DNA of 54,140 nt from an uncultured Candidatus Saccharibacteria bacterium (GCA_964594415.1 CAZQLQ010000006.1:1-54140), one strand, 5' to 3'; numbered from the stretch's first letter, positions 5,918 through 27,255 are shown. The notes: generated by a model not told the origin, from the sequence alone. A program made the numbers and translations.

Positions 5918-6027
5918 ATTTACCTCCTTTTTTATAGTTATATTATACTATTCAAAAAACCAACTTGAAACAGATAAAAAGGAGCGACTTTTTGTCGCTC
6001 CTAATTTTTAAGAATTATTTTTTGTTA

Positions 6028-9401: not shown

Positions 9402-9497
9402 TGGTGGACCCTACAGGACTCGAACCTGCCACCTCCTCGGTGCAAACGAGGCGCTCCCCGCCCGTACCGAACGGTACGTTCGGGCGGGTACCAGATG
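9402..9497 (-). pseudogene. 3' part of the outer (split) tRNA-Ala(TGC): D-loop with 32-nt insert, anticodon arm, T arm, acceptor 3' strand and CCA
   Basis: Reverse complement catctggta[32 nt]gagcgcctcgtttgcaccgaggaggtggcaggttcgagtcctgtagggtccacca; lacks nt 1-12. Confidence 0.9.
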
Positions 9498-9501
9498 GAC
9501 T

Positions 9502-9631
9502 TAATAAAATAGAGTTTGCTGAATAATTGGTGGACCTGACAGGACTCGAACCTGCTACCTCCTCGGTGCAAACGAGGCGCTCTACCAGGTGAGCTACAGG
9601 CCCGCGTTATTCAGCAAACTCTATTTTATTA
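9502..9631. repeat. Perfect 25-bp inverted repeat (9502-9526 / 9607-9631) enclosing tRNA-Ala
   Basis: taataaaatagagtttgctgaataa and its exact reverse complement. Confidence 0.95.
9528..9603 (-). tRNA. tRNA-Ala(TGC), intact inner copy
   Basis: 76-nt cloverleaf, G3:U70, anticodon loop TT-TGC-AC, encoded CCA. Confidence 0.97.
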
Positions 9632-9635
9632 TCAG

Positions 9636-9878
9636 TTATTCTTCGATAATTTTGTTTATAAACCTTCTACCAGCCGCCGATTTAAAGTACTTTTCTCTAA
9701 TCAGCGCCTCGTTCAAAGTTTCAACTTTTTCATAGTATTTAATTTTTAATTTACCCTTCATTTTAGAAGTAGTTTTTGTGTGACCTCCGTTATGCTCCTG
9801 CAACCTTCTTTTGAGATTGTTTGTGTATCCTTTATATAAGGTGCCGATTTCGTCTTCTAAGATATATACGTAATACAT
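9636..9878 (-). CDS. Small stand-alone GIY-YIG endonuclease (YhbQ/UPF0213-like)
   Basis: YYVYIL...LYKGYT-NL-RRL-EHN...YYE...EA-IREKYFKS; conserved Y/R/H/E residues present. Confidence 0.92.
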   Translation of the reverse strand: MYYVYILEDEIGTLYKGYTNNLKRRLQEHNGGHTKTTSKMKGKLKIKYYEKVETLNEALIREKYFKSAAGRRFINKIIEE

Positions 9879-9901
9879 GCTTGATATTTTACCACAACCT
9901 T

Positions 9902-9962
9902 AGGCGCTCCCCGCCCGTACCGAACGGTACGTTCGGGCGGGTACCAGATGAGCTAAGGGCCC
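9902..9962 (-). pseudogene. 5' part of the outer (split) tRNA-Ala: acceptor 5' strand and D arm with 32-nt insert
   Basis: gggcccttagctcatctggta[32 nt]gagcgcct; acceptor gggccct pairs perfectly with agggtcc of the 9402 piece; 9902-9950 is identical to 9449-9497. Confidence 0.9.
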
Positions 9963-10169
9963 TCATCGAAATCCGCTGTCAAGCTTCTTAAATAGCTTTC
10001 ACTATTTATTTCGCTTTTACGCGATTTCTCCTCTTCCCCTAAAAATCTACGATTTTTGGGGACCCCACAGAAACGAACTAAATTTCAAAAAATTCTTAAA
10101 ACCTTTTTGTACTTTCGCAACGCTTCCTTTTTCGCAAAAATTTATAATTTTTTGCGAGATGACTTATGT

Positions 10170-10198
10170 ATTTTACTCTTTTAAAAGGATTTTTTCAA
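10170..10198 (-). promoter_or_regulatory. Sigma70 promoter upstream of the split tRNA-Ala/GIY-YIG unit
   Basis: TTGAAA-17-TAAAAT. Confidence 0.6.
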
Positions 10199-10204
10199 GC
10201 TAGA

Positions 10205-10453
10205 TTACATTGCCCCAAGAGAACCGAGTAATCCGTCATAGATGTAATCAGCAACGCCAATCATCACCAGAATAGAGACAATAATCATTAGTGTGCCGAG
10301 AATTCTATAAAAAGTATAGGTCCCTGCCGGGCCAAGGTATTCCTCCGCAAATCCTATGCGAAAAGTATTATCAACAATTTGATGCGTATACGCAACAAAG
10401 CTTGTTCCGAGTGCTATACCAATAATCCCAAAGATAAACTTTCCTATTGTCAT
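10205..10453 (-). CDS. Conserved small 2-TM protein (AEEYLGPAGTY motif)
   Basis: 82 aa, SD aggagg; family recognised as common in CPR genomes (from memory). Confidence 0.75.
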   Translation of the reverse strand: MTIGKFIFGIIGIALGTSFVAYTHQIVDNTFRIGFAEEYLGPAGTYTFYRILGTLMIIVSILVMIGVADYIYDGLLGSLGAM

Positions 10454-10578
10454 ACCCCTCCTGTTGAATTAGTTTACCCGTCGAGAAAATTTCTAATTTT
10501 CTCGATAAAGGAGGAAACGCGATAAGTTGCAGTAATTTTATTATTTAAAATTATGAAACCTGCCAGCAGTTTCCGACG

Positions 10579-10655
10579 TGGTGGGCGATCGAGGACTTGA
10601 ACCTCGGACCTCGTCATTATCAGTGACGCGCTCTAACCACCTGAGCTAATCGCCC
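10579..10655 (-). tRNA. tRNA-Ile(GAT)
   Basis: 77-nt cloverleaf, anticodon arm cgtca-CTGATAA-tgacg, encoded CCA. Confidence 0.97.
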
Positions 10656-10680
10656 GTGAAATCAATTTTCAACACATAAT

Positions 10681-10709
10681 ATTTTACCAAATAAAGGGCA
10701 ATATTTCAA
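10681..10709 (-). promoter_or_regulatory. Sigma70 promoter of tRNA-Ile
   Basis: TTGAAA-17-TAAAAT about 25 nt upstream of the tRNA. Confidence 0.65.
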
Positions 10710-10765
10710 CAAGTAAGTGAGATGTACAAAAAGTCCATCGAAAGTAATATAAGGTTTAAGATGGA

Positions 10766-11230
10766 GCAGTTCTCACATTCGTTCGAACAATAAACCCCTT
10801 GAAAAACTGTTCGTCCCGAGGACCGACTATTTTAAAAAGAAGTTCAGTTTTTCTTGAACTTTGCATCACTTTCTTTCAAGAGAAAGTGAGAAAAGAAATT
10901 AGATTCTTCGACTTCGCTCAGAATGACACTATTTTGTCATCCTGAGGGAGCGGAGCGATTCGAAGGATCTAGAGATCCCTCGACAGGCTCTCCGACGGAG
11001 TCCGACACGAACTCATCGGAGTCGTCGGACGGGATGACATAGGGAAGGAGTGGATCCCTGGAATGACGCCAGGGATGACCACAGCACTATAAAAAAGTGC
11101 TGGGCGAAGCAGAGAAATAGGTAGATCCCCGCGTGCGCGAGGATGACATAGGGAAGGAGTGGATCCCTGGAATGACGCCAGGGATGACAAAAAACATTAT
11201 AAAAGTAGTTCTCTGATTCGCCTCGAACAT
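10766..11230. repeat. Second mosaic cluster of REP-like palindromes
   Basis: Same units as 1-470; direct repeat of about 40 nt (catagggaaggagtggatccctggaatgacgccagggatgac) at ~11038 and ~11146; 10795-10839 matches 54087-54131 with one mismatch. Confidence 0.9.
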
Positions 11231-11264
11231 GATTGGCATTGTAAAGATGCGGGGGTAAACAATT

Positions 11265-11293
11265 AAAAAACTCCACACAAGGCGGAGTTTTTT
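11265..11293 (-). terminator. Bidirectional-type terminator just downstream of the 16S processing stem
   Basis: aaaaaactcc-acacaaggc-ggagtttttt. Confidence 0.7.
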
Positions 11294-11297
11294 CGGC

Positions 11298-12938
<1,641 letters not shown>

Positions 12939-13840: not shown

Positions 13841-15742
13841 TTATTTTTTGTTTTTACCGTTTCCGTTGCCGCCCTTTTTCTCGATCGTTACAACAGGCTC
13901 TTCTTCCTCTTCAGGTTTTTGTACCCAGAAAAGATACCCGCCTAGTGCTAGAAGGAAAATTAAAGCGATGATCCCCCAGGTAGGGAATTCTTTTTCGTCG
14001 CTTTCATTGTCCTCTCCGTCTATAGGAGCAGTGGTATCGGTTGTACTGTCAGCTTTTACTTCTCCAGTTACCTCAGTCGTATCCCCTTCGCTGGCATTAA
14101 CAACCTCACTTGTTGAAGCACTGCCAGAATAATAAGAATAAGAGTAAGTAACAGGTTTTGCCGCAGGAACAGAAATATAAACAGGCATTGTTGTGGTTTC
14201 ATTCCCAGCTGCATCAACAACAATAATCTGATATGAATAGGTCTTCCCCTTTAATACTGTACCGTCCTCAAAATAATTTACTTTTCCTGGATTAAAAGTA
14301 ACAGTTTCTGAACCTGACTTCCTGATTATTTTTATGTGATCAAAAGTCGCAGCGTCTGGATTTGTCCAACTGATTATGACGCTATTGCTAGTTTGTGAAT
14401 ACCTAATTACTAAATTGTTAGCTGCACTAGGCGCCTTGGTATCAATAGTTAGCTCTTCATCGTAAGTAGCTTTGTTCCCATAGACGTCTTCCGTGTCCAA
14501 AACTACGTCATGCAGTCCTTCTTCCAAAACATCAGCGATTTCAATAGTCCAAGTATTACCATTTATTGTAGCTTCGCCACCTATATCCTCACCGTCAATA
14601 GTAATCCACAGTGTAGCTTCCGGATCATCAATAGTTCCTGAAAGAATTGGGCTTGTACTATTAACAGCCTTGGTGACCAAAGCTGCTTTAGGAGCCGTAT
14701 CGTCAATTTTTATCGTTTGAATCTTTGAACTTTTTCCGATTATTTTTGAAGCGTCTATGTCGAATAATATATAGCTTATCTCATAGATTCCACCTTTTAT
14801 AATGTTCATTTCCTCAAAGACTATTTCTAAACCGTTTTTTATTTCTTCTTTTTCTGAAGAAAAATCTTCTGGGTTTTCTGGATATCCGATTACCAAAACG
14901 CTTGCATCGGTGATAGCAAGATCAGCTAGCTCTTCGCTGGTCGCAAGCAACTCATCAGCCTCATCACCATCAATCATTATATCTGCAGGATTGATAGCTG
15001 CTTTATCTTTTCTGGAAATTAGAGTATAAATCTTTGCCTCATCGTTACTGACATCATCATAAAGATTGCCTTTGATAGTTACCGTATCATCAAAAGATTC
15101 AGTAGCCCCATATATGGCTTCGGGAGTGGTTCCCGTAACGTCTAGGCTAGTTTCCGCAATTGTGATAACTTGAGAAACAAGGCTTTGTCCAATTTTTACA
15201 AAACCCTCTTCTACGTCATCTAAATCGGGACCAGAATATACATAATACGAGACACTATATACACCTTTTTTTGCAAAGGTTAATTTGCCTGAGTCTAGGT
15301 AGCCAAGGCCTTCTATGTCATCTTTCTTTGAATCTAACGAAAATCCATCGTCATTACCAAAAGCAATAACTAGGTCGTCAGAATCTACCAAAGCTTTTTG
15401 TTCGCTGTCTGATGATAAAACCTCTACCCCATCAGCTTCTAGATTTGTCGAGTCAATTGCAACAGGATTGGAAGGAACAGTCACATCCTTAATAACTCCA
15501 TAAATCCTAGCATCGTTTTCCTCAACATCCTCAAAAACCGTTCCCTGAACTTTCACTCCGAATTCAAATTCGGTATTGAGCCCTTGAATCAAACTGTTTC
15601 CCTCAATTGATGGAGTTACAGTCAAATTCGTCGTTGTTATAGGGGCCGAAGCATAAGCGCTACCGACACCTAGAAATGCTAATTGCATAACCAAAAGAAC
15701 ATTTGTAGCAATAGCAATTTTTCGCATTATCCCTTTTAACAT
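13841..15742 (-). CDS. Surface protein: signal peptide, duplicated acidic domain, Ig-like, FN3, S/T linker, C-terminal TM
   Basis: DDTAP..SPILSGTIDD (Ig-like), SWTNP...YSYQIIVVDAAGN (FN3), TM FPTWGIIALIFLLALGGYLFW. Confidence 0.85.
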   Translation of the reverse strand: MLKGIMRKIAIATNVLLVMQLAFLGVGSAYASAPITTTNLTVTPSIEGNSLIQGLNTEFEFGVKVQGTVFEDVEENDARIYGVIKDVTVPSNPVAIDSTNLEADGVEVLSSDSEQKALVDSDDLVIAFGNDDGFSLDSKKDDIEGLGYLDSGKLTFAKKGVYSVSYYVYSGPDLDDVEEGFVKIGQSLVSQVITIAETSLDVTGTTPEAIYGATESFDDTVTIKGNLYDDVSNDEAKIYTLISRKDKAAINPADIMIDGDEADELLATSEELADLAITDASVLVIGYPENPEDFSSEKEEIKNGLEIVFEEMNIIKGGIYEISYILFDIDASKIIGKSSKIQTIKIDDTAPKAALVTKAVNSTSPILSGTIDDPEATLWITIDGEDIGGEATINGNTWTIEIADVLEEGLHDVVLDTEDVYGNKATYDEELTIDTKAPSAANNLVIRYSQTSNSVIISWTNPDAATFDHIKIIRKSGSETVTFNPGKVNYFEDGTVLKGKTYSYQIIVVDAAGNETTTMPVYISVPAAKPVTYSYSYYSGSASTSEVVNASEGDTTEVTGEVKADSTTDTTAPIDGEDNESDEKEFPTWGIIALIFLLALGGYLFWVQKPEEEEEPVVTIEKKGGNGNGKNKK

Positions 15743-15967
15743 TTTTCCTCCTTTTATCTTTGAATCCTTAAGTTATTCTGAGAAAAGTTGAAGAATCTTT
15801 GAAATACTTCAATAAATCCAGTATAACTTTTTTTATAAACTTTCTAATACTAATAGACAATTAATGATTTGTTTTGTTTTTATTATTTATTTATTTCGGA
15901 AATAGACAAACTAAAAACCGAACACCCTCCCTCCAAGTTGTATATTTTTTGACAATAAAAACTTCGA

Positions 15968-16068
15968 GGAACTGTGATCGGTTTCACCACTTGCTATTTC
16001 CCATAGGCACTTGTGAACAACCGAGTCCAACAACAGTATCGCACCCATAAGTCAAAGCAATCACTTCC
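15968..16068 (-). ncRNA. Candidate c-di-GMP-II-like riboswitch (variant), leader of the 633-aa surface protein
   Basis: P1 ggaa-gtga/tcac-ttcc, P2 tgct/agca, TGA/GGA K-turn-like element, P3, loop tcggt..ttcac complementary to 3' gtgaa-accga. Confidence 0.55.
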
Positions 16069-16168
16069 TTATATAGATATATAGATTTGTGATTAAAATT
16101 TGTTTTTGTTTTGCTCAGGTTTTGTTTTTATTTCTGTACCCCTTGTTTCCAAAAGGTTTGTAAAATTG

Positions 16169-16196
16169 ATTATAACAACATTACAGATTATGTCAA
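16169..16196 (-). promoter_or_regulatory. Sigma70 promoter upstream of leader A
   Basis: TTGACA-16-(TG)TATAAT. Confidence 0.7.
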
Positions 16197-16264
16197 CATT
16201 CAAAACCAACTATATTTATAGAAACTGCTATCAGCTTAAACAAAAATCGGTTGGGCGAAAAGAA

Positions 16265-16432
16265 CTAGTCCTTTTTAAAAAACTTTGTTTTTGCCGTACT
16301 ATAAACTTCCCCGCCTTTCTTATAAGCCTTTCTTGGAACAGTAGAAACAGAGGAAAGCAGATTCTTTGCCTTATAGACAACAAACCTAACAGACTCTTTT
16401 CTTGATCTGTTTTCAGATGATTTTCTATCCAT
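16265..16432 (-). CDS. Putative 55-aa basic peptide (below the ORF-track cutoff)
   Basis: AAGGAGG SD, ATG, MDRKSSENRSRK...KFFKKD. Confidence 0.4.
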   Translation of the reverse strand: MDRKSSENRSRKESVRFVVYKAKNLLSSVSTVPRKAYKKGGEVYSTAKTKFFKKD

Positions 16433-16612
16433 AGGTGCCTCCTTCTTTGTTAGTTTGCTTGCTTTTATTTTACCAAGTAGCTGATAAATAACAACTAGAC
16501 AAAATTTTGTTTATTTCGTATCAGTTTTAAATACTTTTATTTTTCTAACGCAGTGTGAAGTTCTCAAGATTAATAGTTCTCGTAATCACTCAATCGGTAA
16601 TCTCTATTTTAA

Positions 16613-16632
16613 AAGGGGCCTTACGGCCCCTT
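16613..16632 (-). terminator. GC-rich hairpin after the InlB-repeat gene
   Basis: aaggggcc-gtaa-ggcccctt followed by tt. Confidence 0.7.
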
Positions 16633-16638
16633 AAGTTT

Positions 16639-18837
16639 TTATTTCTTGTTCTCTTCTTCATCTGTAAACAACCAGTAGATTGCTGTAAGAATCAGTATTG
16701 CCAATGGAACAATCGCCCAATACCATTTACAGAATATAGTGTCTTCATACCCGTCGTGTAGATATTTATGAATCAACCAAGCTGCTAAACCAAACACTAC
16801 AGGCCAGGCATATAGAAGTTTAGCTTTTCTTTCCTTGTTGTGTTCATATCCATAGTATACAGAAGTACCAGCAACAAGGATTAATAGAATAATCCACCAC
16901 CAAGGACAAGCTCCTTTATCTTCTGTAGCCGTACCCTTGACCTCCTCTGCCTTCGTAGTTGTAGTAGTCTGAGGAATTGTTGTAGTAGTTGTGGTGGTAG
17001 TTGTGGTAGCGCTAGTTACACCTGTCGTACCAGCCACTCCAGTAGCAATTACTATTGGAGTAATTGGGGTAGATGGGCTAGTCGTAGGCGTAGTAACTAA
17101 TCTCCACTGAGCAACCAACGTTTTCCCGCCTAATGGCATCGTAGATGGAAATGCCGGAGACCATCCAGTAAATATATAGCCAGGCCTTGTTGGATTTGCT
17201 GGAGCAGAAATACTTGAGCCATAGTCAGCAGTAATTGGAGCAATTTCCGAACCCCCATTTGTGTCGAAGTAGATAGTATATTTGTTCGCTATCCATTTAG
17301 CGTACAGCGTCATATTGCTTTCTACGTCATCGTTAAAGTCCCAGGCGCTTGTAAGCGCCGAGTCAGAATACCAACCGTCAAAAGTGTAGCCTGGTTTTGT
17401 TGGATCTGTTGGCTCTATAATCTCATCTCCATCTTCTACTTGCTGGCTGTCAACAGGAGTTCCACCGTTTGAATTGAATATCACCGTATATGCTTCCTTG
17501 ACCCATTTTGCGTATAGATCGGTCTCGCCTGTTACTCTCATAGTTGAGAAGTTCCATGGTTGCGCAAAAGTATTGTCGTCCAGATACCAGCCAGAAAAAA
17601 CATAGTGATTTCTTGTCGGATCTGTAGGCTTTGTAATCAATTCGTTATATATAACATCCATATCGTCTATATGCGTTCCGCCGTTTGAATGAAAATCAAC
17701 CTCATAAGTATTTATCTGCCACTGCGCGTAAAGAGTGACGTCTTGCGACATTGTTATTTCATCGCCTTCAGAATATGTAGTACCGGTCCCGTCGGCTTTT
17801 GTATTCCAGTCATTAAACGTATAACCGGTTTTATATAGTCCTGCATCATTGCCATAGACTTCAATCTCTGTGCCATAGTCATATGTCCTGTTTGAGTCAG
17901 GAACAAGACCGCCAGTATTTCCATTACCATTATAGGCAAGAATGTACCTATTGAGGCCCCATTTTGCGTATAACGTTGTATTCGCATTTACTACGTCAGT
18001 AGTAAAGTTCCAATCATCAGTACAACAAGCATCCTTGTACCATCCGATAAAGTAATAATTAACTTTTGTTGGATCTGTAGGTTTTGTAATTGTGTTTCCA
18101 TATTGAACATTCGTGATAGGAGATACGCTACTTCCTCCTTTAGAGTCAAAGGTTACAGTATAAGTGGCTTTAGCGGCTGCGTTGACATATATATTATCAA
18201 TGCTATTATAACCATCATTATTTATTGTTCCACTTCCTGCTGCCCTATGATTGCTAGAAATCTGCCATCTTAAAATCACTTTAGCCTGATTGTCTAATGC
18301 TGAAGGGAGTGTAAGATTATTCAATGCCCCGCTGTTGTTCCAGCTTGCATTAGTAATTTGATAATCACTTCCGCTCACCTTTGTCCATGTGCTTCCATTA
18401 TTTAGGCTGTAATCGATATGAAAGTCTCTAGGACCATCATTTTCACTTCTTTGCTTTGATGACAAAGTCAAAGTTTTATAGCCGGTTGTGCTAAACTCAA
18501 TATACCAATAATTAGCGTTATATCCGCTATTGTAGTCCCAATCTTTTGCTGCCGCTGCTTTGTCAGTGCCTGAATCGATACCATTCGAATCATACCTTTC
18601 CCCACTCAAATGATCGCCTTCTAGTTCACTAATTCCAACATTTGCTGCAATACCAACATCCGCATATTTATCCGCTGAACCACTTGGGAAAGTCCAACCG
18701 ACTATTGTAGTTGTCGGAACTACTGCAAACGCTGGTGTAACGCCAAGAAAAAATAAATTTAAGACCAAAAGCGTTGACGTCACCACTGCAAAAATATCTT
18801 GCATCCTTTCTTTTAGATTTTTCGTCCTTACCCTCAT
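16639..18837 (-). CDS. Surface protein with 5 InlB B-repeat (Listeria-Bacteroides repeat) domains, T-rich linker and 3-TM C-terminal anchor
   Basis: Repeats Y-x-V-x-F-x-S-N-GG...P-T-K...F-x-GWY...LYAKW; N-terminal signal peptide. Confidence 0.9.
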   Translation of the reverse strand: MRVRTKNLKERMQDIFAVVTSTLLVLNLFFLGVTPAFAVVPTTTIVGWTFPSGSADKYADVGIAANVGISELEGDHLSGERYDSNGIDSGTDKAAAAKDWDYNSGYNANYWYIEFSTTGYKTLTLSSKQRSENDGPRDFHIDYSLNNGSTWTKVSGSDYQITNASWNNSGALNNLTLPSALDNQAKVILRWQISSNHRAAGSGTINNDGYNSIDNIYVNAAAKATYTVTFDSKGGSSVSPITNVQYGNTITKPTDPTKVNYYFIGWYKDACCTDDWNFTTDVVNANTTLYAKWGLNRYILAYNGNGNTGGLVPDSNRTYDYGTEIEVYGNDAGLYKTGYTFNDWNTKADGTGTTYSEGDEITMSQDVTLYAQWQINTYEVDFHSNGGTHIDDMDVIYNELITKPTDPTRNHYVFSGWYLDDNTFAQPWNFSTMRVTGETDLYAKWVKEAYTVIFNSNGGTPVDSQQVEDGDEIIEPTDPTKPGYTFDGWYSDSALTSAWDFNDDVESNMTLYAKWIANKYTIYFDTNGGSEIAPITADYGSSISAPANPTRPGYIFTGWSPAFPSTMPLGGKTLVAQWRLVTTPTTSPSTPITPIVIATGVAGTTGVTSATTTTTTTTTTIPQTTTTTKAEEVKGTATEDKGACPWWWIILLILVAGTSVYYGYEHNKERKAKLLYAWPVVFGLAAWLIHKYLHDGYEDTIFCKWYWAIVPLAILILTAIYWLFTDEEENKK

Positions 18838-19135
18838 ATATCCCCCTTTCCTTTCCCCTCCTGCTTAATATTCTATAAATCAACTATTATCTATTAAATA
18901 AATAAAATTATTTTGAGATCTTGAAAAAGTGATAGAAAATTCGTGTATATCAAAAAATAACAGAATTTCTGTGCATTCCGCTCCTATATAAGCTCAATAT
19001 TCAGGTTTTTAGTATTTGTGAGAGCTTATGATTCGAAGCAGTCACGATATAAAAAGTATATAATTCCAATGTAAAACATTTTGCTTTTTTGTTTTTATTT
19101 CTGAAACCCTCGACAAATTCCGAAGGATATGGCCT

Positions 19136-19164
19136 GATAATACACCTAAGACCAAAAAAAGTCA
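19136..19164 (-). promoter_or_regulatory. Sigma70 promoter giving a 5' leader of about 290 nt for 16639-18837
   Basis: TTGACT-17-TATTAT. Confidence 0.55.
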
Positions 19165-19179
19165 ATAATAAAGGAAAAA

Positions 19180-19908
19180 TCAATACCCTGGGGTCGGATC
19201 GATCCTTTCAATAAAATCAGCTGAGGTGTCTGAATCGGTCCCCAAATGTTCTCTTTCTAATGAGTGACCTTCATCCACATCAATACATGCCGGGTCAAAT
19301 ATCTCAGTATCGTCTCCATAGCTAATTTGATCCACTATATCGCCTTTATCGTCCCTGAGTATCACCCGATCTCCGCTGTTGCTCATTCGATCATGACTAC
19401 CCGAAAGATTTATCTTTACAACGTTATCTTCTGTTATATTTTCCCAAAAATGCCAAGTATCATTACCATGGGATAAAAGTGCAAAGCCATAAGCCGGTAT
19501 TTCGACATTTGAATTTATAATGCTTGGCCATGAATCGCCCGAAATAGACCATTTTTTCAAGCTTATTGCAACTCCTGTCGGGTTATAGAGTTCAACCCAT
19601 TCATTATCATCCTCCCTTTCAAATCTAGAGCAATCATTATCATTAAAGATTCGGCACCCGGTATCGTAATAAACCTCGTTGATAAGCACTTGCAGCTCTG
19701 GCAATTCATTTTCTCCGGTGGTGATAATGTTATTTGAAATCGTTGCCGTATCAGAGAAGTAACTTCCAGTGGAACCAATAGTAACAGCAGCCGTAATCAA
19801 AATAATATAAAGGCATTTAAAAATATTTTTCAAATTATTTTTAGTAGAGTAACTCATTCTTTTCTTTTGTTTCGCTTTTCTCTTTCTTTTTTGTCTTAAT
19901 TTTTTCAA
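19180..19908 (-). CDS. Lamin-tail-domain protein with SipW-class signal peptide (true start probably 19857)
   Basis: GSTGSYFSD signal motif; LINEVYYD...EWVELYNP...GDRVIL...VDQISYG (LTD). Confidence 0.85.
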   Translation of the reverse strand: MKKLRQKRKRKAKQKKRMSYSTKNNLKNIFKCLYIILITAAVTIGSTGSYFSDTATISNNIITTGENELPELQVLINEVYYDTGCRIFNDNDCSRFEREDDNEWVELYNPTGVAISLKKWSISGDSWPSIINSNVEIPAYGFALLSHGNDTWHFWENITEDNVVKINLSGSHDRMSNSGDRVILRDDKGDIVDQISYGDDTEIFDPACIDVDEGHSLEREHLGTDSDTSADFIERIDPTPGY

Positions 19909-20404
19909 GCTCTTTTTTGATTTTCCCTATTTCTCCATAAATAATAATAAGAGCTGGGATAAGAATAAATAGGACAAGACCCTTTGGCGTCTTTAGGAAT
20001 GATACCGCATTGCCGATATAAGGAACGCTATAAACTACTTTTCCAATTACGTTCTCTTTAATTACTTTTTCTGAGTCAGCAGATTTATTGGCATCACCTT
20101 TGACAATATAAAAGGTTGTATCTCTTTCTTGCTCAATACCTACAATTCTATGAGTAACCGTATCTGTTTCGTTTGATATCTTAAAAGTAATAATGTCGTT
20201 TATGCTATAAACATCCTGCTTTCTGTCCAAAACTACACTGTCCTTGCTGAACTCGGGTTCCATACTTCCAGATCTCACCACAAACATTCTATAACCGCTA
20301 ATTTCAAAAGAAGAAAAAATAACAAGCAATGCCATAATAGCCAATAAAATATAGGCGATAAAGCTTACTGTATTTACTAATATTGAACCCTTTTTAATTG
20401 CCAT
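19841..20404 (-). CDS. sipW: Signal peptidase I, SipW type
   Basis: VRSGSMEP, TVTHRIV (Ser-His type), VKGDAN, GKVVYSVPYIG. Confidence 0.88.
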   Translation of the reverse strand: MAIKKGSILVNTVSFIAYILLAIMALLVIFSSFEISGYRMFVVRSGSMEPEFSKDSVVLDRKQDVYSINDIITFKISNETDTVTHRIVGIEQERDTTFYIVKGDANKSADSEKVIKENVIGKVVYSVPYIGNAVSFLKTPKGLVLFILIPALIIIYGEIGKIKKELEKIKTKKKEKSETKEKNELLY

Positions 20405-20436
20405 TTTGCTGTTTTCTCCTCTTTTATTTTTATTAT

Positions 20437-20468
20437 TATACAGCAGGGTGTTAAGGCCCTGCTGTATA
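20437..20468. other. Strong intergenic hairpin between the tasA-like gene and sipW (no minus-strand U-tract)
   Basis: tatacagcaggg-tgttaagg-ccctgctgtata. Confidence 0.75.
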
Positions 20469-20478
20469 AATACGCGAA

Positions 20479-21411
20479 TTAGGATTTGATATAATCGACA
20501 AGCCCTGTTTCAAACAAATAATCAGCTGGGTGCCAACCGATCATTTGACTACCATTGAAGTCGCTTGACTTTACTAACCATATCTTAGCATTTGAGAAGC
20601 TACCAAGATTTTGATCGAAGGTGATTGTCAGACTTCCTCCACTTGAAACACCAGTATTTAGCAAGACAGATCCTGCACCTGGCCAAGGATCATTATATTT
20701 GATCAGGGAGTAATCTCCGGCTGGCAAACCTGTTGCTGTGAATGTTCCCTTGAAGGTAGAATCCATTACCCCGTAAGATAGGGTTCCCTTGATGCCATCC
20801 TGAATAACATCCCAATTCGGCTCCCCTGTTTTATTCTCCAATACTAGGTTACCGCTTAGCTGCTCACCCATTATCTCAATATTAAACACTAGGGTTTTGT
20901 CCTGATAAGTATTATCAGCGGTATCCTTCATCTTGTAACTTTCAGTAACATACATTACATAATTTTCGGTATTAGTATCAGCAGGAAGCATTCCTAAAAA
21001 CACTTTTGAATTATTAACGCCGTTTAAAGTTACATCGTAGTTATAGATTGCTTGTTTCCAGTAAAAAATGCCGTTCTTTTTGATCTCTACCGATAGACCA
21101 TAAAGTATTTGCGTACTCAAGTTGCCAACATCATTTGGAATAATCACTTTCTTAGTTATGTTGGCGGGATTGCTTCCGTTTGCATTATCTACTTTAAGGT
21201 TGCCGTACTTTACATAGCCCGGCTTCATATCAGTCAAATAGAACGGATTCAAAACGTCACTTCCCTCATCGTTAACTACAATATCCAATGTCCCAGTTGA
21301 CAATGTATTCCCGTTTATTTCAGCCGTGTCGCTAAAAAGTGCTCCGGTTGCACTAATCGACAACGCAGCTACTGAAGCAATAGTAAACAAACTCATTAAA
21401 ATTCGTTTCAT
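20479..21411 (-). CDS. TasA/CalY (camelysin)-like protein with SipW-class signal peptide
   Basis: MKRILMSLFTIASVAALSISATGALFSDTAEINGNTLSTGTLDI, MKPG motif; start refined to the ATG after SD aaaggtgg. Confidence 0.85.
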   Translation of the reverse strand: MKRILMSLFTIASVAALSISATGALFSDTAEINGNTLSTGTLDIVVNDEGSDVLNPFYLTDMKPGYVKYGNLKVDNANGSNPANITKKVIIPNDVGNLSTQILYGLSVEIKKNGIFYWKQAIYNYDVTLNGVNNSKVFLGMLPADTNTENYVMYVTESYKMKDTADNTYQDKTLVFNIEIMGEQLSGNLVLENKTGEPNWDVIQDGIKGTLSYGVMDSTFKGTFTATGLPAGDYSLIKYNDPWPGAGSVLLNTGVSSGGSLTITFDQNLGSFSNAKIWLVKSSDFNGSQMIGWHPADYLFETGLVDYIKS

Positions 21412-21531
21412 ATTACCACCTTTCTTTTTTAAAATTAATAAATCGTTTTTGGCTTCTGTTTCAAAGCTGTCGACCATAGCTTGCCCTCAAAACAAAAACC
21501 GATCAGATTCTCTCCAGATTTAAAATATCTC

Positions 21532-21640
21532 GAGAAAATGTGACCGGTTTCATTTATATCCGTAGAAATAATTACTTACTCCACAAGAACAACTGCAATT
21601 TGCAACCTTACATTCATTGCATCAATTTTTACACATTCTC
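21532..21640 (-). ncRNA. Possible degenerate c-di-GMP-II-like leader of the tasA-like operon
   Basis: TGC-AAT-GA / GGA-GTA-AGTA core and 3' TGAAACCGG, P1 gagaatgtg/cacattttctc; pseudoknot partner poor. Confidence 0.35.
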
Positions 21641-21743
21641 TTTTTTAGTTTTTTAGCTATTTGTATTTTGATGTTATACCTAAAATTTTACCTTGTCAAT
21701 GGCAAAAAATGATGAATTTAGCAAATTTGTATAAACAATTTTC

Positions 21744-22052
21744 TTATTGGCAACTCTCTGGTCTAAAGATAAAAAAAGGGGTGCTGTCTGTAGACAGCAC
21801 CCATATTGGTACACCTATTTTAATTAATCTTTTTACTTGTTTGAATTTTTCTATTTCTTGTTTTTCTTTTTTTATCATATTTACTTTTTTCCTGAAGCTC
21901 CGCTCAACAGGATTGGGGTAATTTGCCACCAGCCTTTTAGGCTGAATCTCTTTAAAGCATTTCCTGCATATTTGGAACCCCTTTTTTGTTGTTTTGATTT
22001 GTTCCCCACAAATCCCGCAATAGTTCTTCATCCTTTTATCCGCTTTAGCCAC
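21744..22052 (-). CDS. Small Zn-finger hypothetical protein
   Basis: CGIC...CRKC; SD aggagggg, GTG start. Confidence 0.5.
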   Translation of the reverse strand: MAKADKRMKNYCGICGEQIKTTKKGFQICRKCFKEIQPKRLVANYPNPVERSFRKKVNMIKKEKQEIEKFKQVKRLIKIGVPIWVLSTDSTPFFIFRPESCQ

Positions 22053-22289
22053 AAAACCCCTCCTTTAAAGGAATAATTTAATGGAAAACGAAAGCCAGTT
22101 CTCCTTTTGTCGGGATTGGTGGGAAATTACAACTATTTTTCCTTGAAGTTTGAGTAGCAAACCAGCGGATAACTGCATAGCGCTTTTTGTCCTTCATATT
22201 GTCACGAAATCTACTTCCCGCTGATTTTATTTCGTTGGCTTCATTATGATACAAAAGACCACCTCAATTCAATTATTTACAGTTTGACA

Positions 22290-22580
22290 TTAGAGTATGA
22301 CTCTTAATACTCTTGGTTCCTCTCCATGCGTACGCTGAACCCCTATTTCTTCATTTATCAAGCTAGCCATACTTGGACTTTTTGGAACCACTGCATTGCA
22401 ATGAGGACACCTACTGTGCTTACTGGGAGATGATTTTGAATTATGACTACGACCACAGTTAGAACATTCAAACCTATAATGCTTCATGAACCCTTTTTCT
22501 AAATCTTTTGCCCAAGACACAATTCCTACTCCTTTTAAATCTAGCGGACACAATACAAAAGCTCTTACCCAGGATACCAA
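22290..22580 (-). CDS. Small Zn-ribbon hypothetical protein
   Basis: CSNC...CPHC. Confidence 0.5.
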   Translation of the reverse strand: MVSWVRAFVLCPLDLKGVGIVSWAKDLEKGFMKHYRFECSNCGRSHNSKSSPSKHSRCPHCNAVVPKSPSMASLINEEIGVQRTHGEEPRVLRVIL

Positions 22581-22670
22581 TCTCTGCCAGTAAGATTCAC
22601 AACATCCCTCCTTAATAAGTAGACTCCGCTATTCGCCCTCCTTTCACCCGAAAACAACAAGTGAGAAATT

Positions 22671-22886
22671 TCAATAATCCAACATTGCATCCTCGATCGG
22701 ACGTAGATCCTTAAACAATTTGGACGCTACAATCGGTGGTTTAACTAGAGCCCTAGACCTAGCTTTTGAAATTGCCTCTTTGATAATCAAAGTACTTGAA
22801 TCAATATAAACTGGGCCTAGATTCAGCGATTTAAGCACTAAATTTAATTGATCAAAAAGTTCTTGATCCAAGGGTATCCCCTCCAA
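22671..22886 (-). CDS. Hypothetical protein
   Basis: 71-aa ORF co-oriented with neighbours; no recognised motif. Confidence 0.35.
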   Translation of the reverse strand: MEGIPLDQELFDQLNLVLKSLNLGPVYIDSSTLIIKEAISKARSRALVKPPIVASKLFKDLRPIEDAMLDY

Positions 22887-23030
22887 CCAGATTCTCTGAG
22901 TAAATAGGACCTAGCCATAATCCCCTTCAAAAAAAAGCATAAGCACCACCCCCTCACTAATTATCAATGTTCAATAAATAAAGCTAACGCTAAATTAAAA
23001 CTAACACTCATGAAAAACCATGTCAATAAA

Positions 23031-23059
23031 AAATAAGCGGGAGGGTGAACCGCTTATTT
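23031..23059 (-). terminator. Terminator after the NTG-repeat operon
   Basis: aaataagcgg-loop-ccgcttattt followed by a T-run on the minus strand. Confidence 0.75.
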
Positions 23060-23086
23060 CTTATCATATATAATGACTAATAACTT

Positions 23087-23986
23087 CTATACGGCCTTAT
23101 GTATCTTTTGCTGATGTCTTACTCTGATTGCATAGAAAGCAAGGTAGGCAATAACAATTTCTGCAATTATTACCTTGTCATACCCTTCGGCAAACCAGCC
23201 TATTCCTGTGCCATAGTGAGCAATCGTATGAACTATCCATGCTAAATATCCAAAAACTGCAGGCCATAAATACCAGAGACCCAAAATACCTTTTGGATTT
23301 TCTGTTCTAGATAGATAAAATCCGTATCCTCCTAGAAGAACTGCTAGTGCAATAACTATTGCGATACACCAAGGACAATTTTGCTCATCCCCTATCAGAA
23401 CATTTCCAGTATCAGCTCCTTTAATATCCTCGCTTCCTAAAGCGATTATCTCATTATCAGTACTTTCATTGTCTGACTCAGCAAGAGTTTGCTCAACTCC
23501 GTCAGATCTGTATGTTGCTACAAAACTACCGGAATACCCGCTAGTATGGATATTCACGCCACCGCCACTAGTTGTAATCTTTATCGTGCCACCCGAGGGA
23601 GAAGTAATTACAGTAGTTTTGGGGTTTGTGGTAGTTGTAGTAGTAGTTTCATTGTCATTGTCGCCGTCTTCGCTATTTATAGAACAATAATTGACTTCGT
23701 TAGTAACACTTAGAGAAACGTCAATATCTCCGGTTTTTACGCTGCCATCACCGGTATTTCCGTTTGCAGTATTTTCTCCAGTACTTATCTTAAGATCGAT
23801 TTCATTATCAATTGCTGCGTTATTTTCAACCTCTATCTTAGTTCCATTTTCTACAGAAATAATTGTTTTATTTACTGAGTTATAGCCTGTAATCTCATTT
23901 GAGATGTCAGCCGCCAGAGCAACCCCCCCTACCAGAAATACAGCAAAAATTGGGATAATTAATATTTTTTTACGTTTTGTTTTCAT
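23087..23986 (-). CDS. NTG-repeat protein 3: signal peptide, 1 repeat, T-rich linker, 3-TM anchor
   Basis: ISNEITGYNSVN...STGENTANGNTGDGSVKTGD; C-terminus homologous to that of 16639-18837. Confidence 0.8.
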   Translation of the reverse strand: MKTKRKKILIIPIFAVFLVGGVALAADISNEITGYNSVNKTIISVENGTKIEVENNAAIDNEIDLKISTGENTANGNTGDGSVKTGDIDVSLSVTNEVNYCSINSEDGDNDNETTTTTTTNPKTTVITSPSGGTIKITTSGGGVNIHTSGYSGSFVATYRSDGVEQTLAESDNESTDNEIIALGSEDIKGADTGNVLIGDEQNCPWCIAIVIALAVLLGGYGFYLSRTENPKGILGLWYLWPAVFGYLAWIVHTIAHYGTGIGWFAEGYDKVIIAEIVIAYLAFYAIRVRHQQKIHKAV

Positions 23987-24044
23987 GGCAGCCTCCTTTC
24001 TAATAGGTGACCCTCACTACGGCGCCAACTTTTTATGACCCATT

Positions 24045-26213
24045 TTATGCTCCACTTTTCTTTTTTTTGCCAAAATAAACTGAAAGAAACGAAAGATAAA
24101 CTATTGTCAGAAACGCCAGAATTTGCATCTTGAATTTACCCAGCATAGACAAAAAGTTGTTAGAATCGTTTGTCTGACTAATCGTATTAACACCAAGAAC
24201 GCTACTTCCTCCATCCTGGTTGCTGTTGCTTGATGCCAGAAGAACTGCATTGTTATCATTATCAGGTAATATATTTTCTAACGCTATTGATCCGTCTACA
24301 GGAACCTTCACACCTGCCGAAGTGAATATTTTAAACACACTTGAGTCAACTGGTTCAGTAGAAATATGGATTTCTGTAGGAATTTGGGTAATCACTTGCG
24401 TTGTTGCAGTAGTTTGCGCTACCTCTTTTTCTACATCTATGTTTCCATCCCAGTCCCCAAAGATATTTACTACCAGGAATACGAACTTTTTAGCCACTAC
24501 ATTAACATTCATAATGTTTGCGATGTTGGCAAGTACATTAGAGTCACCTGTTGTTATATTCCCGTTTCCGGTATTATAGTCTGCCTTGTTATCGCCGGTG
24601 TTTGCAGTGATTGAAATATTATTAGACAAAACTCCTTCATTTTCGTTGTCTATATCAATTAAGCTTGATGCATCTACCGTTGCCGTATTTTCTGACTCGG
24701 CTCCGGTATTTTCGTTAGAAGCTGCAAGGTTGCAAACATTTTCACTATCACAACCGTTATTTACTATCCCTAGATAAGGAGACAGGAGATTTTCTCCTGA
24801 CCATTGACCCGCTACATTTACTATGAAGAAAAATATAGTATCTCCTATCAAGTTTTGATTTAAAAGGTTGCTTACACTCAATTCCGTGTTTACGTCACCA
24901 GTTTGGACCGAACCACTACCAGTATTATATCCGCTTGTGTTATCACCTGTATTATTAGCAATCTTAATATTATTTAAGACTTCTGCATTATTATCGTTAT
25001 CGATATCTAGTGCATTATTTACGTTCGCTGAAGATATATTACTCGAATCAAATCCTGTGTTTTCATTACCTGCAGTTATCGCACCACCGCTATTATTTGA
25101 ATTAATCGAATTCCCTGCCAGGCTTTTTGGTATCAATAAGTCCCCTAGCCAATCCCCAAAAATGTTTAATACGCCAACAACCCCAAGATCAGAAGCAGTA
25201 AAGGAGCTGTTAATGAAATTTAACAAGTTCAGCGATACATTAGAGTCACCAGTAGTTACGTTGCCGTCGCCTGTATTGTAACTGGCGTCATTATCGCCTG
25301 TATTTGATTCGATATTAAAATTATTTGAAGCGTTCGCATCATTATCGTTATTCACAAACGTTGAGTTGTTAGTATTGATAATGGCCGAGTTAGTAGATTC
25401 GGCACCTGTATTTTCGTTTTCTGCACCAACCCTACTACCAGTCAAGGTATATTTTTCACCAGAATTAGGGTCAACGAGATAATTACCAAATAGATTCCCT
25501 GCAACATTTTCAAAAAGGAGTTTTATCTCTCCACCAGGGAGTGCAACAAAAGCGGTATTAATCATATTTAGAATAGAGAGAATTATATTTGAATCCCCTG
25601 TCTTCACGCTTCCGCTACCCGTATTGTAGTTGGCATCGTTATCTCCGGTATTTGAAGAAACAACAAGGCCATTATTTACTTCCGCCTGATTATCGTTATT
25701 TACCACTAGTTTGCTAGCATCCAATACAACCGCCTCGTTCACTGAACCCGCTCCAGTATTTTCGTTACTAACGCCAGACTCTGTTGATTCGGATCCGCTT
25801 CCTTCAGCTAAAGTAGGAATAGTTTGTCCCGACTCAGCTCCCAGATCTCCCGCAACCTCTTCATTTAGAGGACAGGACTCTGATGGATTAGCGGTAGACG
25901 AACCAGTATCTGCCGTAGGAGCCGTATTTTCGGTAGGATTGCTTGTACCCTGGGTATCGCCGGTAGTTCCCGAATTTGTTTCCTCGCTCCCAGGCAAAGC
26001 AGGAGCTGTTGGCGAGACTGGAGTCTCAGGTGCTGTCGGAGCTACTATGACTTTCGGGGTAGTAGTTGGCGTAGTCGGTAATGCTGGACGGACTGGAGCC
26101 GCAGGCAATTGAGGAGCCTCCGAGAAGGCAAGACCTAAAGGAGCCACAACTAACAAAACAGTCACAAAAGCTGTGCCTAATCTTTTTAATCTTATTAATA
26201 ATCTTGTATTCAT
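24045..26213 (-). CDS. NTG-repeat protein 2: signal peptide, P/T-rich region, 4 repeats, C-terminal TM
   Basis: Four copies of NENTG-x-x-S-x-N...NTGDN-x-x-x-YNTG-x-G-x-V-x-TGD. Confidence 0.85.
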   Translation of the reverse strand: MNTRLLIRLKRLGTAFVTVLLVVAPLGLAFSEAPQLPAAPVRPALPTTPTTTPKVIVAPTAPETPVSPTAPALPGSEETNSGTTGDTQGTSNPTENTAPTADTGSSTANPSESCPLNEEVAGDLGAESGQTIPTLAEGSGSESTESGVSNENTGAGSVNEAVVLDASKLVVNNDNQAEVNNGLVVSSNTGDNDANYNTGSGSVKTGDSNIILSILNMINTAFVALPGGEIKLLFENVAGNLFGNYLVDPNSGEKYTLTGSRVGAENENTGAESTNSAIINTNNSTFVNNDNDANASNNFNIESNTGDNDASYNTGDGNVTTGDSNVSLNLLNFINSSFTASDLGVVGVLNIFGDWLGDLLIPKSLAGNSINSNNSGGAITAGNENTGFDSSNISSANVNNALDIDNDNNAEVLNNIKIANNTGDNTSGYNTGSGSVQTGDVNTELSVSNLLNQNLIGDTIFFFIVNVAGQWSGENLLSPYLGIVNNGCDSENVCNLAASNENTGAESENTATVDASSLIDIDNENEGVLSNNISITANTGDNKADYNTGNGNITTGDSNVLANIANIMNVNVVAKKFVFLVVNIFGDWDGNIDVEKEVAQTTATTQVITQIPTEIHISTEPVDSSVFKIFTSAGVKVPVDGSIALENILPDNDNNAVLLASSNSNQDGGSSVLGVNTISQTNDSNNFLSMLGKFKMQILAFLTIVYLSFLSVYFGKKKKSGA

Positions 26214-26240
26214 TTAGACCCCCAATTAATTTATCTGGCG

Positions 26241-26268
26241 CTGGTAAGGCTCAATTGAGCCTTACCAG
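26241..26268. repeat. Perfect 28-bp palindrome between NTG genes 1 and 2
   Basis: ctggtaaggctcaattgagccttaccag. Confidence 0.9.
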
Positions 26269-26281
26269 ACCTAATCAAATA

Positions 26282-26872
26282 TTAGTTTACCTCAACATCA
26301 CTTGTGTTTACGGTTGTACTAAAATCGATAGTTACAGAGGAATCGCCTGTTTCGACGCTTCCATCACCAGTGTTGTAACTCGCTCTATTGCCGCCAGTTG
26401 TTGCTTCTATGTAAGCATCATTTGATACGCAAGCCTTATTCTCTACTTCTATCTCGAGACGATTGTTTTCGTCAATCTTAGCGATATTTGTAGACTCTGC
26501 TCCTGTAGTTTCATTGCTGATACTATAAGAAGCGCCGCAAGTGCCACCACATCCAATGCTTTCAACATCGATTTCTGTGCCGTTAGCTTCGTTTGTAGCG
26601 GTAATGCTTACGTCTGCATCACCAGTCATCACTTCGCCGTCCCCAGTGTTTTTATTTGCTTTATTATAACCGGTAGCAACTGTGCCATTAACACCATTAT
26701 GTAGTCTAACGCTGTTCTCAACTTCGACTTCTGTCTTGTTGTTTTGGTCAACCTTAGCTACGTTTAATGAACCGTATCCGGTCTCTTCGTTACCTATAGA
26801 TGCCATTGCAAAGCCTGATAGTAAGCTTACTCCAACCCCGGCAATAGCGATTTTTTTAGCTAGATCTCTCAT
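26282..26872 (-). CDS. NTG-repeat protein 1: signal peptide plus 2 repeats, no anchor
   Basis: Start refined to MRDLAKK (SD ggagg); two repeats linked by CGGTCG. Confidence 0.85.
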   Translation of the reverse strand: MRDLAKKIAIAGVGVSLLSGFAMASIGNEETGYGSLNVAKVDQNNKTEVEVENSVRLHNGVNGTVATGYNKANKNTGDGEVMTGDADVSITATNEANGTEIDVESIGCGGTCGASYSISNETTGAESTNIAKIDENNRLEIEVENKACVSNDAYIEATTGGNRASYNTGDGSVETGDSSVTIDFSTTVNTSDVEVN

Positions 26873-27034
26873 TTCATTCACCTCCCTTCTTAAATAACTT
26901 TACCTAATCAGTTAGGAGAAATAAGATGAAGGATAATTCCTCAAAATAGTTCGCCCAACTGCCGACCGTACATTTTAGCGGAGATTTTAAAAACCGACCA
27001 TATATCTAGACGTGGTGTTACAGAGTAACTGTTA

Positions 27035-27157
27035 GAAACAAGTCGGTTTCACTATTTGCGCTTCTCTATTTTGGAGTCCTCAGTGCTAGATCTTGTGACC
27101 AATCCCTTCTGAAAAGTTTGAGTTACATAAGCCCTGAGTCAAAGGCGCCCTTATTCC
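27035..27157 (-). ncRNA. Candidate c-di-GMP-II-like riboswitch (variant), leader of the NTG operon
   Basis: P1 ggaataag/cttgtttc, P2 gcgc/gcgc, TGA/GGA, P3 ctcag/ctgag, loop TTGG-TCAC complementary to 3' GTGA-AA-CCGA. Confidence 0.65.
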
Positions 27158-27225
27158 ATATTATTAAATTTTCGAATTTCGGCTTTCATTAGTATTTTTG
27201 TTTTGGTTTTTGTCTCCTTACGAAC

Positions 27226-27255
27226 ATTATAGATACAAAAAAATCCCTATGTCAA
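27226..27255 (-). promoter_or_regulatory. Sigma70 promoter upstream of leader B
   Basis: TTGACA-18-TATAAT. Confidence 0.65.

Follow-up and report, generated by a model that had tools for sequence, protein, structure and literature searches.

Here, we report a three-gene operon in a 54,140-nucleotide stretch of DNA from an uncultured Candidatus Saccharibacteria bacterium (GCA_964594415.1 CAZQLQ010000006.1:1-54140; hereafter, the window), whose products share one Asn-rich repeat. The genes g1, g2, and g3 are three co-directional minus-strand open reading frames (ORFs) spanning 23087-26872. The same gene order recurs in related loci, cited below by L numbers, and we refer to its three positions as A (secreted and anchor-less; g1 in the window), B (long and anchored; g2), and C (short and anchored; g3). 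The reading that we favor, and to which we give about an even chance on the sequences at hand, is that of an anchored-plus-secreted paralogue system that assembles at the cell surface. It draws on a large repeat family, the conservation of the operon, the division of its products into free and anchored proteins, sorting signals in relatives, an RNA hairpin between A and B, and selection on the leader RNA.

The repeat family and its free and anchored members

The original prediction, made by a model from the sequence of the window, placed seven repeats in three genes. ORF calls and motif searches confirmed these genes and the distribution of 2, 4, and 1 copies over g1, g2, and g3, with a repeat unit of 76 amino acids. 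The motifs NExTGxxSxN and NTGxGx[VI]xTGD occur exactly seven times, at positions 31 and 123 of g1, 150, 266, 383, and 500 of g2, and 30 of g3. The seven units align without gaps and have 19 invariant columns. BLASTP comparisons among g1-g3 gave E-values down to 1e-24 under composition-based statistics, indicating that the repeats are homologous and do not merely resemble one another in composition.

An exhaustive HMMER search over 1.84 billion representatives (clusters at 50% identity) revealed a repeat family of 2,475 clusters at E ≤ 1e-3, 1,361 at E ≤ 1e-10, and 260 at E ≤ 1e-30, with up to 10 repeats in a single protein. The size of this family is visible to exhaustive HMMER and not to a word-indexed search, which returned three close relatives with g1 as the query and one match with a 75-sequence repeat profile. 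None of g1-g3 has a Pfam or NCBIfam match at E ≤ 1, a PDB sequence search with two repeat profiles returned no chain at E ≤ 10, and the family is undescribed in the literature that we searched. Source databases name its members “hypothetical protein” and nothing else. Named members come from candidate division CPR2, Ca. Woykebacteria, and Patescibacteria metagenome-assembled genomes (MAGs), in agreement with the original prediction, which had placed the repeat in hypothetical proteins of the Candidate Phyla Radiation (CPR). Judging from these searches, we regard the family as a large one that lacks a curated model and has its named members in CPR genomes.

A genome scan with the g1 alignment used narrow patterns and gave 5 loci, a result that does not cover the taxonomic range of the family. 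One two-repeat member, at 5296-5901 of L007, lies on a contig labelled as an “uncultured Gammaproteobacteria” MAG; the label could reflect mis-binning, or the family could reach beyond the CPR. Accessory domains are rare in the family and of extracellular type (DUF11 and dockerin). The NTGxNxAxx/NTGxGxVx spacing of the repeat resembles the 9-residue turn of the RTX β-roll, but superficially only, and Pfam gave no match to the RTX nonapeptide GGxGxDxUx (HemolysinCabind) in g1-g3.

All three N termini read as signal peptides, with a basic stretch followed by a hydrophobic one and ending in AxA (AMA, AFS, ALA). Kyte-Doolittle analysis confirmed the architecture claimed by the original prediction, namely a small protein without an anchor, a long one with a transmembrane (TM) anchor, and a short one with three TM segments. 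In g1, the signal peptide is followed by two tight, A-type repeats, with no further hydrophobic segment and no anchor. The g2 product consists of a signal peptide, a Pro/Thr-rich linker, four B-type repeats, and a C-terminal TM helix followed by KKKK; each repeat is trailed by a hydrophobic insert of about 40 amino acids, giving a period of about 117. The g3 product has a signal peptide, one A-type repeat, a Thr-rich linker, three predicted TM helices, and a basic C terminus. Segments 210-228 and 564-582 of g2, which Kyte-Doolittle also flags, are probably not TM helices, as they coincide with the conserved inserts after the repeats. The repeat proteins are hydrophilic (grand average of hydropathy, GRAVY, −0.59) and those of the family extremely acidic, with a median isoelectric point (pI) of 4.05; mature g1 has 172 residues, a pI of 4.05, and a net charge of about −20.

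Among the 159 family proteins analysed, the repeat period is bimodal, at either 85-95 or 110-120 amino acids, and these proteins fall into two classes, with anchors counted in complete proteins only. In the tight (A-type) class (n = 68), the repeats begin at about residue 32, directly after the signal peptide, the tail is about 6 residues long, and an anchor is found in 2 of 51 proteins. In the spaced (B-type) class (n = 91), a linker precedes the repeats, the first of which begins at about residue 112; a conserved hydrophobic insert of about 40 amino acids comes after each repeat, and the tail of about 163 residues holds an anchor in 53 of 78 proteins. Hidden Markov models (HMMs) of the two subtypes classified the repeats of C proteins as A-type in 10 of 12 cases, that of g3 included, and those of B proteins as B-type in 23 of 24, in a test that is partly circular, as a few of the tested proteins were also in the training sets. 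These assignments suggest that C corresponds to the secreted subunit with an anchor added and that B forms a class of its own. Flexible, Gly/Ser-rich linkers of 9 to 24 amino acids connect the repeats. CxxC or CC occurs in 51 of 324 linkers of the tight class, an example being IGCGGTCGAS in the g1 linker at 26527-26570; such paired cysteines could form disulfides or bind metal.

Several relatives replace the membrane anchor with a sortase-type sorting signal. The signal at the end of gene C is LPVTG in L004, L005, and L006, LPVAG in L017, and LPAAG in L016; in L011, gene B has a terminal LPVTG after a Pro/Glu-rich wall-spanning segment. A hydrophobic stretch and then a basic tail come after every one of these signals, which locate the family to the cell surface. 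In the window, plain TM segments serve as anchors instead of LPXTG, and the window ORFs scanned with Pfam, the operon included, contained no sortase. The proteins are thus probably linked covalently to the wall in some lineages and tethered to the membrane in the lineage of the window. The A proteins of L011 (658-2154) and L013 (6345-8114) carry an extra C-terminal tail with a shared motif, ...SGEGSVNICVNGKEVK and ...SGEGKFSVSINGDDIA, which may be an alternative way of docking A.

Operon conservation, the intercistronic hairpin, and the leader RNA

The original prediction depended on the small anchor-less paralogue being conserved together with the anchored ones, and this association held. A is directly followed by B in the window and in L001/L018, L003, L004, L005, L006, L009, L011, L013, L016, L017, and L021; in L015, the gene after A bears repeats and is cut. 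The gene set is seen in about 13 independent lineages, in 8 of which the short anchored C follows; in L001, the start of a g3-like gene is found after B. The B proteins of the related loci are about 700 amino acids long and have insert-bearing repeats. The identical 196-residue g1 product is on record as P0001, and P0012 and P0020 are orthologues of g2. In L019, two small paralogous ORFs (60 and 73 amino acids, at 5657-6268) lie between gyrA and gene A and share ...EFLP.EHL.RKY..ITG...EGIET.ADMVEEYL.

The genomic setting is that of an ordinary chromosome (Pfam, Rfam). In the window, gyrB and gyrA lie directly upstream of the operon, and other genes include pheS, pheT, ddl, a Mur ligase, an L,D-transpeptidase, and a 16S rRNA gene; in L017, gyrA likewise stands immediately upstream. 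The nearest named relatives of GyrA, at about 74% identity, come from “Patescibacteria group bacterium” MAGs, and on this basis we take the host of the operon to be a Patescibacteria (CPR) bacterium. The features of the operon are listed in Table 1.

Table 1. Features of the repeat operon and their positions in the window
Feature	Position	Strand	Remarks
Gene A (g1)	26282..26872	−	196 aa; ORF call, repeat motifs
g1 repeat 1	26573..26800	−	76 aa
g1 repeat 2	26297..26524	−	76 aa
Gene B (g2)	24045..26213	−	722 aa; ORF call, repeat motifs
g2 repeat 1	25548..25775	−	
g2 repeat 2	25200..25427	−	
g2 repeat 3	24849..25076	−	
g2 repeat 4	24498..24725	−	
Gene C (g3)	23087..23986	−	299 aa; ORF call, repeat motifs
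g3 repeat	23681..23908	−	
Sigma-70-type promoter, TTGACA-18-TATAAT	27226..27255	−	12/12 consensus match, kept in relatives
Transcribed leader, about 340 nt	26873..27225	−	start site inferred from promoter
Terminator-like helix in leader, candidate attenuator	26989..27049	−	RNAalifold consensus
Sub-threshold Rfam c-di-GMP-II match, not significant	27032..27102	−	17.7 bits vs gathering 53.5
Intercistronic RNA hairpin	26237..26271	−	core is the 28-bp palindrome 26241-26268
Intrinsic terminator, operon end	23020..23065	−	15-bp stem and U-run; z = −3.8, 0/200 shuffles

As the original prediction had noted, g1 is followed by a perfect 28-bp palindrome (26241-26268). The RNA of the A-B spacer folds with −26.1 kcal/mol (z = −3.9), and none of 200 shuffled sequences was as stable. 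A hairpin stands at the same position after A in 10 of 12 lineages, with energies of −18 to −53 kcal/mol and unrelated sequences. In L001/L018 and L003, the stem of the window is retained through compensatory substitutions, a real loop is present, and the perfect palindrome is lost. The stem is thus kept without dyad symmetry, which argues for an RNA element and not for a dyad-symmetric protein-binding site; we therefore rejected the palindrome as a DNA operator. A hairpin after the gene of a major subunit is a common arrangement, and the one found here may raise A relative to B and C.

Other signals bear on the expression of A. The g1 start codon is the ATG at 26872, preceded by GGGAGGTG, and the Shine-Dalgarno sequence is strong. 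Both promoter hexamers are retained in L001 and L002. Identity to L018 at 4-fold degenerate sites is 0.59 for g1, 0.36 for gyrA, and 0.33 for g2, and the protein identities are 80% for g1 and 59% for g2. The consensus promoter, the hairpin after A, and the conserved synonymous sites of g1 are consistent with expression of A above that of B and C, which the sequences suggest.

The leader upstream of g1 is 75-93% identical to that of L018, while the 4-fold sites of gyrA and g2 are saturated (0.36 and 0.33), so that the leader appears to be under strong purifying selection in the clade of the window. The consensus fold obtained with RNAalifold contains a helix, AAACCGAC ... GUCGGUUU, followed by a U-run (27049-26989), and a second helix with one compensatory pair. 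No Rfam family matched the leader at threshold. The original prediction had noted a leader resembling the class II riboswitch for cyclic di-GMP (c-di-GMP), a messenger that controls curli and Fap. We rejected this assignment: the only riboswitch-like Rfam match, to c-di-GMP-II (RF01786), scored 17.7 bits against a gathering threshold of 53.5 (E = 1.5 in a 1.35-kb search), and it did not recur upstream of A, with no c-di-GMP-I or -II match in 11 related loci at the gathering threshold and none of the class in 7 loci scanned permissively (E ≤ 10). Control by c-di-GMP, and with it the parallel to curli regulation, is thereby unsupported. Blastn did not find the leader in L017, L019, or L021, so that the element, seen in the clade of the window only, is no family-wide riboswitch, and a metagenome scan for its invariant core gave one chance match only, on an unrelated GC-rich contig (L014). 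We regard the leader as a candidate new cis-regulatory RNA, possibly a clade-specific attenuator or riboswitch.

Proposed assembly at the cell surface and competing interpretations

In the model that we favor, gene A would encode a secreted, anchor-less protein consisting of repeats only, made in excess from the consensus promoter, and the hairpin after A would protect the A transcript or partly terminate it. Gene C would display an A-type repeat on a membrane anchor in the window and on a sortase-type wall anchor in relatives, and gene B would supply a long membrane-anchored paralogue with a hydrophobic insert per repeat. A would then assemble on the cell surface onto the tethered C and B through homotypic repeat-to-repeat β contacts, and the product would be a fibre or a coat. 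The higher expression of A, its co-assembly with B and C, and the formation of a polymer are all parts of the model that we infer.

Column statistics over 685 repeats, which are independent of any structure model, show a periodicity of two residues that holds strictly between columns 9 and 75. One face is conserved and consists of small or hydrophobic residues or Asn (A9, S11, N13, A15, V17, V19 ... I33, N35, I37, V39, A41 ... V57 ... N70, N73, N75), with invariant Asn in phase with the core positions; the opposite face is variable and acidic or polar. Invariant TG/NTG turns lie between the strands at columns 7-8, 42-44, 51-53, and 59-60. In-phase invariant Asn would suit the Asn ladders of a solenoid or cross-β structure, and a small sandwich domain is also compatible with it. 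AlphaFold modeling with a 49-sequence two-repeat alignment gave an all-β structure with very long strands, the same strand pattern in both repeats, and a disordered inter-repeat linker, at a predicted local distance difference test (pLDDT) score of 63 (32 to 63 over five models) and a predicted template-modeling score of 0.36; a single-sequence model of g1 was uninformative (pLDDT 33). When this low-confidence model was compared with the PDB by Foldseek, the functional amyloids FapC (9nqd, 9u4u) and CsgA (8enq) ranked first, followed by β-helix proteins (Ag43, pectate lyases, ice-binding proteins, and bactofilin), with E-values of 0.03-10, probabilities of at most 0.06, and TM-scores of about 0.1. 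The best match, 9nqd (FapC), had E = 0.033, a probability of 0.06, and a TM-score of 0.10 for a query model of pLDDT 63. This ranking hints at local geometry and does not assign a fold.

Several observations weigh against assembly of A on tethered paralogues. The Foldseek matches to FapC and CsgA are not significant, and the low model confidence together with the disordered linker would fit independent domains on a flexible string equally well. A first direct coupling analysis (DCA) of the repeats was dominated by gap artefacts, and a gap-free run was underpowered, with 335 sequences (effective number, Meff, 331) and 2 pairs above the shuffle null, so that the strands may form either a solenoid or hairpins. 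A charge of −20 on 172 residues would oppose tight in-register stacking unless cations neutralise it. The hairpin after A lacks a U-tract and may act as a 3′-end stabiliser, a processing site, or a partial terminator. Solitary A-type genes occur in L007, L008, and L019; L011 and L013 have only A and B, with neither a C gene nor a hairpin between A and B; and A proteins have 2 to 10 repeats, as in stalk-like adhesins.

In one improbable alternative, each product acts on its own as a surface or secreted binding protein, with no co-assembly. The repeat would then be a ligand-binding module for a host cell-wall glycan, a cation, or a mineral; B and C would present it on stalks and A would be its soluble, released form, as might serve, for instance, the attachment of an epibiont to its host cell. 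Repeat number varies as in beads on a string, the linkers are flexible, and sortase-anchored repeat proteins, such as some of those found here, are classically adhesins. The acidic, Asn/Asp-rich composition and the CxxC or CC pairs in 51 of 324 linkers could serve metal binding, and, besides the solitary A-type genes, the slot downstream of gyrA in L020 holds other surface proteins, with TSP_3 and Bact_surface_Ig-like domains, which suggests a variable surface-protein locus at this site. However, independent binding proteins leave unexplained the consistent order of an anchor-less, repeat-only A, a hairpin, and anchored paralogues of the same subtype, and the face that is conserved resembles a protein core and not a binding site, the variable face being the exposed one. 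The least probable of the alternatives, in our judgment, is a two-dimensional coat, S-layer-like or sheath-like, in which B and C would fasten an acidic outer lattice of A to the membrane or wall. The pairing of a free subunit with anchored partners speaks for such a coat exactly as it does for the assembly that we favor; the strong expression signals, the very low pI, which is typical of S-layer proteins, and the long, stalk-like B with its Pro/Thr-rich linkers would also suit it. Yet neither an S-layer homology (SLH) domain nor another known S-layer anchoring domain was found in g1-g3 with Pfam and NCBIfam, the A protein of the window is small (172 residues when mature), a range of 2 to 10 repeats among lineages is unusual for lattice formers, and the sequence evidence fits a fibre equally.

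A strict functional amyloid or β-solenoid fibre is a more specific form of surface assembly of A, C, and B, so that the likelihoods of the two overlap and are not additive. We consider this version unlikely, if the foremost of the alternatives. A would be the major subunit, the tethered B and C would nucleate it as CsgB does, and each repeat would form one or more cross-β layers with Asn/Thr/Gly ladders. The in-phase Asn, the two-residue periodicity, the turns between strands, the long strands of the all-β model, and the order of the Foldseek ranks all point in this direction; A contains nothing besides its repeats, which may number only 2, some tethered proteins have just one, and the operon logic is that of curli and chaplins. 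Against it stand the low confidence of the model and the non-significant matches obtained with it, the failure of sequence comparisons to connect the repeat with curlin or with any chain in the PDB, the very acidic and hydrophilic nature of the protein (pI 4.05, GRAVY −0.59), and the flexible Gly/Ser-rich linkers, which vary in length from 9 to 24 amino acids. Taken furthest, the idea is that of a new class of extracellular cross-β/β-solenoid polymer in the CPR, in which Asn/Thr/Gly ladders would stack repeats within and between subunits, free A would be templated by tethered C and B, and the leader would gate expression in this clade; we hold this single, composite claim to be unlikely.

The CPR/Patescibacteria are a large, mostly uncultured group. 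To current knowledge, its members live attached to other cells, and their surface structures are largely unidentified. For the repeat family, the present data supply an operon grammar in which the free subunit comes first, then a hairpin, and then the long and the short anchored paralogues, the latter often with a sortase signal. Proteins so far named “hypothetical” thereby become a concrete candidate, open to testing, for a major structure of the envelope or of attachment. If a polymer is formed, the secreted-subunit plus anchored-paralogue strategy would have been invented independently here, and the protein might offer a new self-assembling material. If the polymer is of the cross-β type, it would add to curli/Fap and chaplins a third functional-amyloid-type system of independent origin and, with the Pam pili discussed below, would be among the first CPR-specific surface assemblies known.

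Neighboring genes and comparison with known systems

The repeat operon is part of a run of predicted surface-protein genes on the minus strand (13841-26872), which includes a TasA/SipW-style cluster at 19180-21477, 1.6 kb downstream of the operon. In this cluster, ORF 19841-20404 encodes a signal peptidase I of the SipW/archaeal type (TIGR02228, 98 bits, above cutoff). In the lamin-tail-domain protein encoded by the overlapping ORF 19180-19908, TIGR04088 recognises a SipW-cognate signal peptide (20.8 bits, cutoff 19). The 332-residue product of ORF 20479-21477 has the same N-terminal motif, ALFSDTAEINGNTLSTGTLDI, with TIGR04088 below cutoff and no PDB or Pfam match. Between this TasA-like gene and the operon terminator lie two small zinc-ribbon-like ORFs (102 and 96 amino acids; 21744-22580, minus strand) with sub-cutoff Pfam scores. 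Farther downstream, a Big_13/fn3 protein is encoded at 13841-15742 and a protein with five Listeria-Bacteroides (Flg_new) repeats at 16639-18837. The region 9402-12860 (minus strand) contains the 16S rRNA gene (11401-12860), followed by tRNA-Ile, two tandem tRNA-Ala(TGC), and HAD-family hydrolase genes, with no 23S rRNA gene, so that the rRNA genes appear to be unlinked.

The TasA/TapA/SipW system of Bacillus resembles the repeat operon in that its secreted fibre subunit has a partner for anchoring or assembly. However, TIGR04088 has no match in g1-g3, which have ordinary AxA-type signal peptides instead, and the neighboring SipW system appears to be separate from the operon. In the Sulfolobales, the soluble outer protein SlaA is held by SlaB, a membrane-anchored, β-rich stalk with a C-terminal TM helix, as a coat of A would be by B and C; there is no homology to either protein, and SlaA and SlaB share no repeat domain. 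Sortase-assembled Gram-positive pili carry LPXTG on the major subunit, which a pilus sortase polymerises, whereas A ends about 6 residues after its last repeat and has an anchor in 2 of 51 proteins, and neither the operon nor the other window ORFs scanned include a sortase gene. Pam pili, described in 2026 as the first CPR-specific pilus, are reported to be CPR-restricted and to have been uncharacterised before; the genes for their abundant, secreted filament proteins of the cell surface form a conserved operon, and their pilins are two-domain Ig-like/β-sandwich proteins joined by donor-strand exchange (bioRxiv 10.64898/2026.03.03.709456). We excluded the operon as a Pam system, given that Pam pilins have no tandem Asn-rich repeats and the repeat family is unmentioned in that report (bioRxiv 10.64898/2026.03.03.709456).

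With curli and Fap, the operon shares imperfect N/G-rich repeats and a major secreted subunit accompanied by a surface-associated paralogue. The original prediction of a major subunit with membrane-tethered nucleators was modeled on these systems; the operon logic of free and anchored paralogues is indeed conserved, but homology to curli or Fap was not found. The curlin repeat PF07012 gave no Pfam match at E ≤ 1 in g1-g3, and hhalign of the 75-sequence repeat profile with E. coli CsgA gave a probability of 0.1%. The unit is 76 amino acids long, compared with 19-23 in CsgA and about 35-40 in FapC. Pfam scans of the operon neighbors and the other window ORFs revealed no csgE, csgF, or csgG and no secretion gene of the CsgG or FapF type; CPR cells are regarded as lacking an outer membrane.

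By analogy, the logic of the system would come closest to that of the chaplins, and next to that of CsgA/CsgB and FapC/FapB, although membership in any of them fails on sequence. Chaplins show no sequence relation to g1-g3, in which Pfam DUF320 has no match, and their domains are hydrophobic and about 40 amino acids long, whereas the repeat described here has 76 residues and is hydrophilic and very acidic. What the two have in common is the use of one small β-forming domain in both long and short paralogues: in Streptomyces, long chaplins (ChpA-C) hold one or two copies of it and end in a sortase signal by which the polymer is tied to the wall, and short ones (ChpD-H) are secreted and have no anchor, just as free A stands beside C or B proteins ending in LPVTG, LPVAG, or LPAAG in L004, L005, L006, L011, L016, and L017. 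In the window itself, TM helices take the place of these signals, and here the genes stand in one operon that includes B as a dedicated third class.

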